From: a virus
Reading direction: 5' to 3' (one strand)
IMG/VR virus record: IMGVR_UViG_3300005077_000022
Location: 1 to 57,380 of that record
DNA: 57,380 nucleotides
Part shown: positions 42,549 through 48,770 of the stretch, piece by piece
Layout: every line of letters begins with the position of its first letter
Position numbering within the stretch: the first letter of the stretch is position 1
Notes under the pieces: generated by a model
The model's input: the letters and a program-made list of their open reading frames with translations, nothing else
What the model was told of the DNA's origin: nothing
Databases searched by the model: none
Made by a program: the position numbers and the translations under genes

Positions 42549-43442
42549 TTAGGACTCGAAGGCTTCACCGTCCGGGGAGACGCTGACGCCGCATCGGCAG
42601 TTCGGATGCGGCGGTTCATCGTCACCGATCTCCTCCCCGTCCGGGCCGACGAACGACCCGTCATACGGCACCGTCTGCCCCCCGAGAAACTCGCACACCG
42701 GGCACGGGTCTGGGGACGGGTCCCACGTCTTCGTGGCCTCGTCGGTCATCAGCCCGTCCGCCCGCATCTGCTCGAATCCGGCCTTGGCCCCCGCGAACGC
42801 GGCCATCGCCATCTCGGTGCGGGCGATGTCCAGCGCCCGGTGCTGCACCAGCTCTTGGGTGTACCGCTCCGCTTCCCGGCGGATGTCGGCGGGTGAGTAG
42901 CCCCGTTCCTCCATCTCGGCCATGCGGTTGCCCACGGCGGTGGCGTACCGCTCCGTCAGTCCCACCCGCTCCTGTACCTGCCGGGCGATCTCCAGTGCGG
43001 GCCACCCCTGTTGGTTGGCGGTGAGCAGGGTGGCCCGGACCCCGGCCTCGGTGTTGGCACTGATCTCGGTGATCCGTTCCGCGCCTCGCGTCTCCAGAAA
43101 CTCCCGCCGCGCCGGGTCGGCGATGTCGAATCGGGTACGCCCCCGGCGGTCCACGTTCGCCAACGTCTGCACGCTGGCCACGGCGGCACTGCCTGCCTCC
43201 CCGGCCACCCGGTACAGTTGCCGCAACACCGCCTGCTCCACGATGGGATGACCCAGTTCCCGCCACGGCACCGCTCGGGCCGCGCCGGTCCAGTCCCCAC
43301 GGCGCACGGCCTCCACCACCCGCCCCACGGGAATCCCGGCGCGGGTCGTGGCGATGGCTTGGAGGATGGCCCGGCGCACGGCGGGTTCTCCCCGGCGGGC
43401 TAGTGTCTCAAGCTGGATGCGGAGGCGTGGGGGGCTAGGCAT
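42549..43442 (-). CDS. MuF-like / SPP1 gp7-family head morphogenesis protein
   Basis: ALDIARTEMAMAAFAGAKAGF...KTWDPSPDPCPVCEFLGGQTVPYDGSF...PPHPNCRCG is the Phage_Mu_F signature. Confidence 0.85.
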   Translation of the reverse strand: MPSPPRLRIQLETLARRGEPAVRRAILQAIATTRAGIPVGRVVEAVRRGDWTGAARAVPWRELGHPIVEQAVLRQLYRVAGEAGSAAVASVQTLANVDRRGRTRFDIADPARREFLETRGAERITEISANTEAGVRATLLTANQQGWPALEIARQVQERVGLTERYATAVGNRMAEMEERGYSPADIRREAERYTQELVQHRALDIARTEMAMAAFAGAKAGFEQMRADGLMTDEATKTWDPSPDPCPVCEFLGGQTVPYDGSFVGPDGEEIGDDEPPHPNCRCGVSVSPDGEAFES

Positions 43443-45717
43443 CGAGGTCCGCCGTCACGTCCGGTGTCCGCTTCGGCCAGTCGGCGTTCGCGAGGTCTTC
43501 GTCAAGGCGCAGAACCTTGCGGCGTCGATCCGCCCGCTTCATCGCTTCAGCCAACCACTCTTCGTCGGGCTTGCGTTCCCAGTTGTAGGCACGCACGGTG
43601 CGGTAGCCGCCGAACACCACCACCTCCCGCTCCGGGAGACATCCGTTGCCGGTGAACGGCAGCGAGAACACTTCCCGCGCAGGCACCTTCGCCATCAACA
43701 CCAATCCATCCCTGCCACCCTCGGCGAATCCCGTTGCAACGTCGTCTCGGGTGGTGAACGAGGACAAGGGCGCAAGTTGCGTGGTGATTGTGGCCGCTTG
43801 GCGAGCCGGAATGTCATGTATGCCGGTTTCGCGGTCTGCGGCAGTGGGCCGGTAGCCTCGCAGCAGCGTCAGTTCCGAGATGCCGCGTTCCGCCAGATAC
43901 GCCTGCGTGGCCTCGTACTGTGCCTCCAGCACGGCGCGGACGGCCGGATTCTTGGCCACCAATTCGGCAGTCGCCCACGTTTGATCGGGCACCCGGTAGT
44001 GTTCAACGGTGGCGTTGCTTGCCAAGCCCCGGTCCATGAACTGCTCGTACGCGGCCAGTTGCACGCCGATGGACAAGGGCCGGGCATCACCGCTGGACAT
44101 GGCCCACTGATCCACTACGGCGCGACAGAGGCGGTTCTGCAATTCTTCGTCACTGCGCCCTGCCACACTTACATCCGTCCAGTTTGGTGCGCCACTGGCA
44201 ATGAACAGTGCCGCCCCCACTTCCAAGTCGCGGCGTGACACACCAGCCTGCGCCAGCTTCGCAGCCAGATTGCGCTGCACCGCCGCCTTGTACTCTGCGC
44301 GCTGCAGATCAAAGTCCGTGACCTGACCGAACAGTGCCGTATCCGCAACGGCGGTGTCGGCGAAGTGCGGGGTACTGGCCGCCGCAGCGGCATCTTCGCC
44401 AGCGGCCTCTCCCCCACCGCCACTGGTCCACTTCCCGCCCTCGTCTCGGGGCTGGTCAGGGTCGAACTTGGCGACGGCGGTGCGAGGGTGGTTCTTCGTG
44501 TCGTCCGTGCGCTTCGGCCAGTCGGCGTTCTTCAACTCGGCGTCCACGTCCAGCACCAGCCGTGCTTTGAACGCCTCTTCAAACCGCGTCGCGCTTGGTG
44601 CCGCAAGGGCTATACGCGCCGGTCGTGTGCCGCCCAACACAACCACCTCTCGTTCGCCCAAGCAGCCATTGCCCGTGCGAGGAAAGGAAAACACGTCTCG
44701 CGCTGCCACGGTGGTTACAAGCACCATGCCGTCGCCTGCATCGTTGGCAAAGGTGTTGGCGATGCGCAAGTTGGTCGTGAAGCTGGACAAAGGCTGGAGG
44801 CGGACGTCTCCCTCCACTGCTTGACCGACCGTCACGCCCTGTTGTTCAAACGCACGGTCTTGAGCATCCGTAAGGGCCACGCCACGGGCCAGCGTCAACT
44901 GCTCGATGCCCTGCTCCCGCAGGTACGTCTGCGTGGCGTCGTACTGCGCCTGCACCACGGCACGGATGGCCTCGTTGCCCGCCACCTTATCGGCGATGGG
45001 CACCAGATCTCGTGGAAGGAGAAGATGATTCATCACCGCTCCGTCTGGCATCTGGTCGCCGAACAGTTCGTTGGCGATCCGCTGGATGCCGATGGACCAC
45101 GGGTCGGTGTCCCCGCTGGTATCCGCCCACTGCTTCACGACCAAGTCCGCCAGTTGGTACGCCACCTCGTCAGTGTCCCACCATGTTTCCACCATCTGGC
45201 CGAACGCTAGAACGCCCTCCGACAGCACGTTCCGTGGGATGCCGGCGTCCATCAGCCGCTCGGTGATGTCGGTGGCCACGGCGTCCTTCAACGCACCGGA
45301 GTCGTACTCCTCCAGCAAGTTCTTGAACAGGGCATCGTGCGTGGCCTCCACGCCCGCAGCGGTGGGTCGTCCGGAGGGCAGAAGGGGTGCGGGGTCCCCA
45401 CCGCCATCCCCACCGCCGCTGGTCCACTTGCCCCCTTCGTCCCGTGGCTGGTCGGGGTCATACTTGGCGACGGGGGCGTGTTGGTTGGCGACCAGCTCGG
45501 ACAGGACGTTTACGACCTCATCCCATTTGGACCCGTCCGCCCGGATCACCCCCGACGAGAAGGCCGTCGCCGCTAGACCCTTGACATCTTCAAGCCCAAG
45601 AACCTCCAAGGTGGTGGTGTATTCCCCGCCCATCTCGTCACCCGCGAACGTCTGGATGTTGCCATGGGCAACGTCGTTCACGAACGTACTTAGGCGTGCT
45701 CGCTCGCTCGCTGTCAT
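43435..45717 (-). CDS. Virion-module protein with two tandem ADP-ribosyltransferase-like (R-S-E) modules
   Basis: Module 2: LTLARG ... LSSFTT ... CLGEREVVVLGG. Module 3: LTLLRG ... LSSFTT ... CLPEREVVVFGG. Each is preceded by VAK(Y/F)DPDQPRDEGGKWT and followed by NADWPKRT. ATGA overlap with the portal gene. Confidence 0.65.
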   Translation of the reverse strand: MTASERARLSTFVNDVAHGNIQTFAGDEMGGEYTTTLEVLGLEDVKGLAATAFSSGVIRADGSKWDEVVNVLSELVANQHAPVAKYDPDQPRDEGGKWTSGGGDGGGDPAPLLPSGRPTAAGVEATHDALFKNLLEEYDSGALKDAVATDITERLMDAGIPRNVLSEGVLAFGQMVETWWDTDEVAYQLADLVVKQWADTSGDTDPWSIGIQRIANELFGDQMPDGAVMNHLLLPRDLVPIADKVAGNEAIRAVVQAQYDATQTYLREQGIEQLTLARGVALTDAQDRAFEQQGVTVGQAVEGDVRLQPLSSFTTNLRIANTFANDAGDGMVLVTTVAARDVFSFPRTGNGCLGEREVVVLGGTRPARIALAAPSATRFEEAFKARLVLDVDAELKNADWPKRTDDTKNHPRTAVAKFDPDQPRDEGGKWTSGGGGEAAGEDAAAAASTPHFADTAVADTALFGQVTDFDLQRAEYKAAVQRNLAAKLAQAGVSRRDLEVGAALFIASGAPNWTDVSVAGRSDEELQNRLCRAVVDQWAMSSGDARPLSIGVQLAAYEQFMDRGLASNATVEHYRVPDQTWATAELVAKNPAVRAVLEAQYEATQAYLAERGISELTLLRGYRPTAADRETGIHDIPARQAATITTQLAPLSSFTTRDDVATGFAEGGRDGLVLMAKVPAREVFSLPFTGNGCLPEREVVVFGGYRTVRAYNWERKPDEEWLAEAMKRADRRRKVLRLDEDLANADWPKRTPDVTADLDA

Positions 45718-48700: not shown

Positions 48701-48770
48701 CCGGCTGGGACGACCCGAGTTCGTTGAACGCCTCTTTCGGTCCAGCGGGCTTCTTGCTCACCTCGGCCAT
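45714..48770 (-). CDS. Portal protein fused to an ART-like module and a C-terminal HExxH metallopeptidase-like domain
   Basis: The N-terminal ~470 aa are portal-like by position and size (…GRSVLRAAYQSYYYAKRIAEIEGIGIERDLAGLPV…). Then VAKAYDPDQPRDDAGQWT, LTLVRG...LSSFST...CVREHEVVILGG, NADWAKRT, VAKYDPDQPRDEGGKWT, VHEIGHHVFHH...SEHFAEAY. ATG 48770 lies 1 nt after the folE stop. Confidence 0.65.
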   Translation of the reverse strand: MAEVSKKPAGPKEAFNELGSSQPARSGGVLTEEYLPELRGMKGRRKFREMAEGHAVVGACLLAIRQYLRRIELTVSPKEGTDERAVELVRTALDDMSQPWTDTMSDILSMLVYGWSLFEVVYKKRVGPDEKDGSKRSQHTDGLIGWRKWAFRPPLTVVEWQFGDDGGLKGVLQQVPPVNRRVELPIDKLLLFRTEAAGNNPEGRSVLRAAYQSYYYAKRIAEIEGIGIERDLAGLPVIGAPPEVVDVNATGPYAETREALKQLTRSIRRDEQEGVLLPLAYDKDGHKLYELSLLSTGGRRQFDTGGVLARYDQRIAMTMLADFILLGHEKVGSFALASSKTDVFALALAGWIDSILDVINRIAIPRLCALNGFDLTATPHLQRGDIDEPDLAALGAYLQALTSSGMTLFPNAELEATLLRAAALPPPDPDERPPAPEAPDVPTPAGGPTPSEDTDVPLTKRGGLARTARPFVRTRRIRTSGVGASRPVAKAYDPDQPRDDAGQWTVDPVSGGNVGSKPGSALTRTDSKLFGGVQVNNVGVRSRIKAAACARIGAKLSEKFTRDEIREAADLLKDPMEDRRYSPEVGDEVVSAIQRSWASTSGDHNAIAVGLQRVAEEVFELNNAELDHLAPRGSPVQTQVFEEKVARIADNRVVHAAVQAIYDDTQAGLREDGVRQLTLVRGMVVSDDVAVPEDRAVPMRGLLQPLSSFSTRLEDATEFGVSGDMDGRGVVMMARVQANRVFSVSTRSGVGCVREHEVVILGGPLAVKAVAVGYDEEHGGVNYRGVRERLLKGIVTIYPDRELHNADWAKRTNDLLPPVAKYDPDQPRDEGGKWTAGGATPAVMVTDDRLSSGTQIVCGKLQDKVVGIIVGAEVPQAHLEELQTIYVDHPRSFRTPNVNAAYNKDTKEIRLNKAPTFHGKPVTPAHDGTIVHEIGHHVFHHRLTDEARQTWQALSNDGQNARISAYAQTNASEHFAEAYSRSHLDNHGRTFLARIEPEVAAYMERIRACDPVFVKGAS

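Follow-up and report, generated by a model that had tools for sequence, protein, structure and literature searches.

A portal protein continuous with predicted ADP-ribosyltransferase and zincin domains, and a junction motif that recurs in phage head and cargo proteins

Introduction

How would a phage portal protein come to carry enzymes, and where would those enzymes act? The question is raised by a complete metagenomic contig of 57,380 bp from the Joint Genome Institute (JGI), IMG/VR record IMGVR_UViG_3300005077_000022, which we call the window and which has a GC content of about 68%. On its minus strand, a Mu-type portal domain is followed in the same open reading frame (ORF) by an ADP-ribosyltransferase (ART)-like module, ART1, and by a predicted zincin metallopeptidase; the next gene, p760, encodes two further modules, ART2 and ART3 (Table 1). 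We find that every module is delimited by a conserved junction motif, missed in the original prediction made for this DNA, and that the motif recurs in many other viral contigs. With a probability of roughly 0.6, we read the locus as the head module of a high-GC tailed phage with virion-delivered cargo of the polyvalent-protein type, in which the motifs are leaders that act as processing or targeting sites.

The portal reading frame runs on through cargo modules

The portal ORF had been predicted to run on past its portal domain, and it does so with no internal stop, behind both Pfam and PHROG portal matches. The Portal_Mu (PF06074) match spans amino acids (aa) 64-426 of the 1035-aa translation from a GTG codon and profile positions 4-325 of 336. 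The likeliest start is the ATG at 48770, which has the Shine-Dalgarno ribosome-binding site GGAAGGGG, lies 1 nucleotide (nt) past the folE stop and agrees with the 1018-aa call of JGI; a start at the alternative GTG, 48821, is less probable. ATGA (45714-45717) contains both the portal stop and the p760 start, and the p760 stop overlaps the start of the MuF gene by 8 nt. These overlaps, and a similar one between a protease gene and the ORF after it, suggest that each pair is translationally coupled.

Three paralogous modules carry an R-S-ExE active site

The three modules, each of about 300 aa, correspond to portal aa 505-818 (ART1), p760 aa 99-414 (ART2) and p760 aa 431-760 (ART3). As had been proposed, they align over their full length, at 39-42% pairwise identity. 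They are true paralogs, not chance matches, and members of a family of thousands of clusters. All of the R, S, ExE and W[A]xxSGD motifs quoted for them, and the HEIGH and SEHFAEAY motifs quoted for the peptidase, lie at the places originally given.

We read conservation from alignments of 10 and 32 diverged family members, about 25-40% identical. The R and G of LTLxRG are invariant in the 32-sequence alignment (LTL[VAL]RG in all three window modules). Within LSSF[ST]T, again present in all three, one Ser is at least 90% conserved across the family alignments and the next is invariant, and in ExE (EHE, ERE and ERE in the window) the second Glu is invariant and the first at least 90% conserved. 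Also conserved are two helices, W-A-x-[ST]-S-x-D and QxQYDxTQ, together with a Q and an F.

The DRAT family of Pfam matches p760 in two stretches at 36.5 bits, against a curated cut-off of 25, and is the sole Pfam family matched in 13 of the 32 family members. We also aligned the ART family, using hhalign, with a profile built from the PF03496-type (ADPrib_exo_Tox; C3/VIP2-like) ART domains of phage contigs, 16 in number. The match had a probability of 92.6% (E 4.5e-7), and the YRG, STS and ExE of those domains paired with LTLLRG, LSSFTT and ERE. The H-Y-D-type ART-PolyVal family (PF18760) gave no match, the active site being R-S-ExE, and sequence and profile searches of the modules against the PDB returned nothing meaningful. 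From these sequence comparisons we conclude that the modules are R-S-ExE ARTs, of predicted activity, with DraT as the nearest curated family. In ARTs of the [QE]xE kind, ExE predicts arginine as the acceptor.

The modules share a C-terminal motif, [LIVP]-D-x-[DE]-L-x-N-A-D-W-[PA]-K-R-T-x-D (at 43465-43488, 44506-44529 and 46335-46358), which is disordered in the AlphaFold model and recurs at the ends of many family modules elsewhere, for example as NADWIKTLSWDLP or NQDWPKRTDD.

The original prediction had called the arrangement unusual, and this did not hold. An exhaustive profile search of metagenomes returned 4,321 cluster representatives at E <= 1e-3, 1,682 of them at E <= 1e-30. Most of the top-scoring matches have at least two modules, often with HExxH domains, and one 7,059-aa protein carries 11 ART copies, the maximum seen; the list was ranked by summed score, which favors multi-copy proteins. 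Portal fusions occur elsewhere, as Portal_Mu-ART (P0151) and portal-MuF-ART (P0007, from a phage-like NCBI contig), and MuF-ART fusions are found among the relatives (for example P0007, P0008 and P0098). Tandem arrays and portal fusions thus recur, and the arrangement is normal for this family. The only relatives in the phage genome collection are in Bacillus phages SP-15 and vB_BceM-HSE3, where they are annotated as hypothetical, and neither Pfam nor NCBIfam has a dedicated model for the family. A search for homologous proteins with the ART profile returned two.

The portal reading frame ends in a predicted lethal-factor-type zincin

A HExxH metallopeptidase had been proposed at the end of the portal ORF, and profile comparison bears this out. 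In an alignment of eight sequences (the portal C-terminus and seven related HExxH domains), the H, E, H, the Tyr and the Glu of ExxAE are invariant. Against the PDB, the profile of this domain (A4) matched the catalytic domain of anthrax lethal factor at E 1.1e-9, including entry 4dv8, and the alignment paired the HExxH, the Tyr and the Glu that is the third ligand. The Pfam ATLF model scored 19.1 bits, below its cut-off of 27.4. Together, these sequence matches support the prediction of an anthrax-lethal-factor-type zincin.

A junction motif delimits the modules and recurs across viral contigs

Five copies of a motif with the consensus (P)VAK[YF]DPDQPRDxxG[KQR][WF]T, followed by a glycine run, lie in the window, all at module boundaries (Table 1), and ART3 terminates p760 exactly where a next junction would be expected to start. 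Synonymous sites vary among the five copies, which argues for selection on the peptide. An origin of the copies by recent DNA duplication or gene conversion was considered and rejected, since their synonymous codons differ.

We then scanned IMG/VR at the DNA level with a degenerate pattern that encodes DQPRDxxG[KRQ]W. The pattern is carried by at least 120 viral loci, where by a rough estimate fewer than ten would be expected by chance, and all 137 of the pattern matches listed are in frame in long ORFs. Positions outside the pattern are conserved as well: K at -4, Y/F/W at -3 (90%), S/D/N at -2, P at -1, E/D at +5 and T/S at +10, then Gly. Among 77 motif ORFs, head domains comprised 23 portals, 12 MuF domains and 4 prohead proteases, and cargo comprised ADPrib_exo_Tox (9), Zeta toxin (5), ART-PolyVal (3), glutamine deamidase (3) and Acb1 (2); nucleases, lysozyme, NUDIX, 2H phosphoesterase and Tox-REase-5 were further partners. 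The order is head protein, motif, cargo. At one locus (L033), the motif comes immediately after an XkdF protease in one ORF, comparable to the window.

Placement within the ORFs is uneven: 24 of 113 ORFs have the motif in their first 40 aa, but only 2 of 106 have it in their last 40 aa. This bias indicates that it behaves as the N-terminal leader of the module downstream. Many weak homology matches (to Zeta toxin, ADPrib_exo_Tox, ART-PolyVal, GNAT and MuF proteins) have the junction motif alone in common with the query, which explains many of the weak matches of the first homology search. In the 77 motif ORFs no Pfam family matches the motif itself, a profile search for proteins homologous to it gave no match, and a literature search for the motif string and its variants returned no relevant description in the searchable literature. 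A term search of the two papers on polyvalent proteins and MuF toxins (PMC5512222 and PMC5576092) found no linker or cleavage motif. The motif, widespread in phage contigs, seems to be undescribed.

In some proteins from the loci L004-L123, for example upstream of the L033 protease, we also observed a variant with His for Gln, W-[DN]-E-x-x-H-P-R-D-x-x-G-[RK]-F, so the motif family is broader than the scanned pattern.

These data bear on whether an assembly error or a frameshift has joined two genes into the long portal ORF. The window is a single metagenomic contig, which favors this reading, but we consider it very improbable. The join coincides exactly with a junction motif, and the motif also joins portal to cargo within single ORFs of independent contigs, an arrangement that we checked in detail at four loci (L005, L017, L039 and L056). 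The portal fusions of P0151 and P0007 are further cases, and codon usage is coding-like over the whole ORF.

Virion delivery and its rivals

Packaged or injected ARTs, and effectors fused to portal or MuF proteins, have been published (PMC5512222, PMC9503650, PMC5576092), and a packaged or injected battery of effectors would be the natural reading of the window, in agreement with those accounts. On this reading, cargo would enter the procapsid through its tether to the portal, and p760 through its N-terminal region or its tags. The leader motifs would be hinges and processing or targeting sites at which the modules are separated during maturation, the cutting enzyme being more probably the prohead protease than the zincin in cis. 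The freed enzymes would then exit along with the DNA, the ARTs would ADP-ribosylate host targets early in infection (arginine specificity is predicted from ExE), and the zincin would either aid processing or cut a host protein.

Head maturation in other phages offers precedents. The portal of phage Mu, gpH, is trimmed at its C-terminus, and internal proteins of T4 carry an N-terminal capsid-targeting sequence that is removed by gp21. What the sequences show is the identity of the domains, the paralogy of the modules, the conserved catalytic residues, and the spread, placement and peptide-level conservation of the motif. It is because of the portal fusion, published models (PMC5512222, PMC9503650, PMC5576092) and these precedents that we infer packaging, cleavage at the motif, injection and ADP-ribosylation of host targets.

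Several points weigh against this reading. It is built from sequence and predicted structural models. AlphaFold models of the ART module had predicted local distance difference test scores of 82.4 over the whole module and 90.1 over a trimmed core, but Foldseek searches of the PDB with both gave no match at E <= 0.001, the best being E 0.3. ART1 alone, or the portal C-terminus, scores 18.7 bits against DRAT, below the cut-off of 25, and the ARTs might modify protein or nucleic acid, or NAD+ itself might be the target. The Pfam scores of the MuF protein (26.1 bits, cut-off 29.6) and the protease (22.7 bits, slightly below the cut-off of 24) fall short. The lethal-factor-like zincin is present in only 4 of 127 motif ORFs, so it is not the motif's obligate partner. 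Twelve 60-kDa extensions on the portal dodecamer could obstruct DNA passage unless removed. Finally, the motif might remain uncleaved and serve as a tether or binding peptide, or mark a recombination joint.

The count of zincin domains also led us to reject an in-cis zincin as the dedicated protease of the motif.

The Foldseek result would fit modules that are not protein ADP-ribosyltransferases: they might consume NAD+, modify nucleic acids, or be non-catalytic binders with an ART fold. The top matches, none of them significant, included TreX, TreTu, cholera toxin A1, PARP13 and IcmQ, a list that is enriched in ART folds and suggestive at most; IcmQ is an NAD-binding, non-catalytic ART-like scaffold. 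R-S-E ARTs include DNA-modifying enzymes of the pierisin and Scabin types, which set a precedent for a nucleic acid target, and neither the N-terminal helical subdomain (W-A-x-[ST]-S-x-D, Q, F) nor NADWPKRT has a counterpart in characterized ARTs. We nevertheless think this improbable. The R, S and ExE are kept down to about 25-30% identity, and their retention under such divergence points to catalysis; in the profile matches to DRAT and ADPrib_exo_Tox, moreover, the catalytic motifs are in register. In the BFVD, family members were retrieved at E 1e-14, and the best viral structure matches came from phage SP-15 and from a "head morphogenesis domain" protein. Proteins annotated as ART exoenzymes or as Alt matched only weakly there (E 0.02-0.13). 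Of the original assignment to C3/Alt-type ARTs, the part that stands is the R-S-ExE site, the DRAT match and the alignment to C3/VIP2-type domains with motifs in register; the Alt match is weak, DraT is the nearest curated family, and structural comparison yielded weak, ART-enriched matches.

What the junction motif does is the second point of contention. We infer that it is a processing or packaging tag. In a wider form of this idea, K-[YF]-x-P-D-Q-P-R-D-x-x-G-[RK]-W-T-GGG would be a portable mark of capsid cargo, and a release site cut by the prohead protease or autocatalytically, across tailed phages; we offer this tentatively, as possible but rather doubtful. It is unlikely, though a serious alternative, that the motif is instead a packaging or docking tag, or a conserved hinge, that binds the portal, scaffold or capsid interior, with the polyproteins staying intact. 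Such a tag would suit an N-terminal leader that precedes very diverse cargo and also MuF, protease and other head-module proteins; p760, which has no head-protein domain, needs some route into the capsid; and polyvalent proteins of the N4 virion RNA polymerase type are packaged unprocessed (PMC5512222). However, twelve uncleaved extensions of 540 aa on a dodecamer are hard to square with DNA passage, and a run of glycines such as the one behind the motif typifies linkers that are exposed and open to proteases. Targeting and cleavage are also compatible; the T4 capsid-targeting sequences do both.

For p760, the N-terminal 82 residues (45472-45717) may form a domain for packaging or docking; no relative of them was detected in 166 fetched proteins or the 127 motif ORFs.

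The enzymes might also act late in the producing cell, without injection, for example to modify host or phage proteins during assembly or to counter defenses that sense the portal or terminase, the fusion serving only for co-expression. This has been raised for ARTs encoded beside packaging genes (PMC9503650), but for the window we give it little credence. Fusion to the C-terminal end of the portal, the end that faces the capsid interior, would put the cargo inside the procapsid, and the leader is also found on MuF proteins and on proteins encoded beside the prohead protease. Partners with anti-defense or toxin functions (Acb1, nucleases), moreover, make most sense early in infection.

Comparison with known systems

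Polyvalent proteins of phages and conjugative elements (Iyer et al. 2017, PMC5512222) are among the closest known systems. They combine several unrelated enzymatic domains in one polypeptide, in portal-terminase phages; here, a portal, an ART and a zincin share one ORF and two ARTs the next. They include ARTs, possibly in multiple copies, and a lethal-factor-like zincin (MPTase), likewise related to lethal factor with 4dv8 cited, and their packaging and injection are predicted. Their ARTs, however, are of the H-Y-D type (Tox-ART-HYD2), whereas those of the window are R-S-ExE with DraT as nearest curated family.

MuF toxins (Jamet et al. 2017, PMC5576092), among them the Enterococcus faecalis EFV ART toxin, are likewise encoded in a head-packaging module beside the portal, commonly carry ART and metallopeptidase toxin domains and are hypothesized to be delivered with the DNA. 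In the window, by contrast, MuF is a separate 297-aa protein without a toxin domain, and the cargo is carried by the portal and by a protein without a head domain.

T4 Alt, a packaged and injected arginine ADP-ribosyltransferase, shares the R-S-ExE configuration of the active site, and both would be head-packaged enzymes expected to act at the start of infection (a prediction, for the window), possibly with an N-terminal leader handled by the head protease. Yet there is no sequence similarity at the BLAST level, the viral fold search brings up an Alt-annotated protein (Shigella phage SP18) at no better than E 0.13, and Alt stands alone, whereas the window ARTs are fused to the portal or in tandem.

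DraT (dinitrogenase reductase ADP-ribosyltransferase, PF07357), an arginine-specific enzyme, belongs to the only Pfam family that matches the modules, and both are R-S-E ARTs. The match is confined to the C-terminal half of the profile, about positions 126-255 of 256; unlike DraT, the phage modules carry a helical subdomain of their own at the N-terminus and the peptide NADWPKRT at the C-terminus, and they belong to an entirely different biological setting. Anthrax lethal factor (MEROPS M34, Pfam ATLF) aligns with the zincin at HExxH, the downstream Tyr and the ExxAE third zinc ligand, but the window domain, of about 180 aa, lacks the other domains of lethal factor.

The arrangement adds one example to a known theme of virion-delivered effectors, with ARTs that are R-S-ExE, as opposed to the H-Y-D type first described for polyvalent proteins, and whose family, of about 4,300 clusters, is very large and lacks a dedicated Pfam or NCBIfam model. 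The junction motif is the more useful product: it delimits modules precisely, predicts mature polypeptides and can be searched for directly in DNA. With Acb1 and others among its partners, the leader may flag virion-delivered anti-defense enzymes and could mark injected phage effectors. Should it prove to be a signal for processing or targeting, the loading of cargo into phage capsids could be engineered with it. The wider proposal, if true, would mean one peptide "address and cut" code common to portal, MuF, protease and dozens of effector families, which could serve to load foreign proteins into capsids.

Gene order and neighboring genes

Table 1. Features of the head-gene cluster in the window (positions are those of the 57,380-bp window)
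Feature	Position	Strand	Description
Portal-ART1-zincin ORF	45714..48770	minus	1018 aa + stop; no internal stop; identical to JGI protein P0002
Mu-type portal domain, about aa 1-475	47346..48770	minus	Pfam Portal_Mu E 3.7e-26; PHROG_113 portal E 1.3e-75
Junction 1, portal to ART1	47259..47309	minus	VAKAYDPDQPRDDAGQW
ART1 (predicted)	46317..47258	minus	WASTSGD, LTLVRG, LSSFST, EHE, C-terminal NADWAKRT
ART1 motifs	LTLVRG 46725-46742; LSSFST 46638-46655; EHEVVILGG 46482-46508	minus	
Junction 2, ART1 to zincin	46269..46316	minus	VAKYDPDQPRDEGGKW
Anthrax-lethal-factor-like zincin (predicted)	45717..46268	minus	HEIGH ... ISAYAQT ... SEHFAEAY; about 180 aa
Zincin motifs	HEIGH 45963-45977; SEHFAEAY 45834-45857	minus	
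p760	43435..45717	minus	82-aa N-terminal region, junction, ART2, junction, ART3; 760 aa, no internal stop; identical to JGI P0001
Junction 3, p760 N-terminal region to ART2	45424..45471	minus	VAKYDPDQPRDEGGKW
ART2 (predicted)	44476..45423	minus	WADTSGD, LTLARG, LSSFTT, ERE, NADWPKRT
ART2 motifs	LTLARG 44881-44898; LSSFTT 44773-44790; EREVVVLGG 44629-44655	minus	
Junction 4, ART2 to ART3	44428..44475	minus	VAKFDPDQPRDEGGKW
ART3 (predicted)	43438..44427	minus	WAMSSGD, LTLLRG, LSSFTT, ERE, NADWPKRT
ART3 motifs	LTLLRG 43855-43872; LSSFTT 43750-43767; EREVVVFGG 43606-43632	minus	
W[A]xxSGD motif	ART1 46962-46982; ART2 45109-45129; ART3 44086-44106	minus	
Stand-alone MuF-like head morphogenesis protein	42549..43442	minus	297 aa; PHROG_3517 E 6e-33; Phage_Mu_F E 1.6e-5
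XkdF-type (S78_2) prohead serine protease, weak	41795..42232	minus	Pfam Peptidase_S78_2 E 1e-4
448-aa ORF after protease	40455..41801	minus	PHROG_17741 (unknown function) E 6e-7; scaffold-like by position alone
Junction 5, 42 residues into the 448-aa ORF	41643..41690	minus	VAKYDPDQPRDERGRF
"Head scaffolding" protein	40017..40415	minus	PHROG

From about 54.4 to 40.0 kb, the minus strand encodes, in order, a putative terminase, FolE, QueD and QueC with a weak QueE-like ORF, the portal ORF, p760, MuF, the protease, the 448-aa ORF and the scaffolding protein. The gene at the position expected for a terminase has no family match and is assigned by its place. As had been predicted, a separate MuF gene follows p760, and no additional domain was found in its product in Pfam and PHROG scans. 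The 448-aa ORF has no Pfam or NCBIfam match, and an NCBIfam scan gave zero matches for all five proteins scanned.

The protease ORF ends in ...FSIVGRGRRETA* and overlaps the start of the next ORF, MSTRLLLDEIVSVGFVDKGA..., as ATGA (41795-41801). A frameshift that fuses the two is possible but not required, because a complete XkdF protease at another locus (L004) has a C-terminal end resembling that of the window protease.

Third codon positions have a GC content of 0.74-0.82 in the cargo modules (43435-46268), compared with 0.88 in the portal domain (47346-48770) and 0.86 in MuF. The lower values fit acquisition as cassettes and suggest that the cargo was acquired after the structural genes. 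By DNA, the nearest cultured relatives in the phage genome collection are Arthrobacter phages Kharcho and Ottawa, the match being 74 nt of the portal; the Kharcho portal, of 555 aa, has no extension.

Between the putative terminase and the portal (48772-51323) lie FolE, QueD (PTPS), QueC and the weak QueE-like ORF, of the radical-SAM type, a set whose sequences point to a pathway for 7-deazaguanine (preQ0). In an N-terminal extension of the FolE ORF, about 100 aa long, we read from the sequence a phosphoribosyltransferase-like motif, VDDVIDSGAT.

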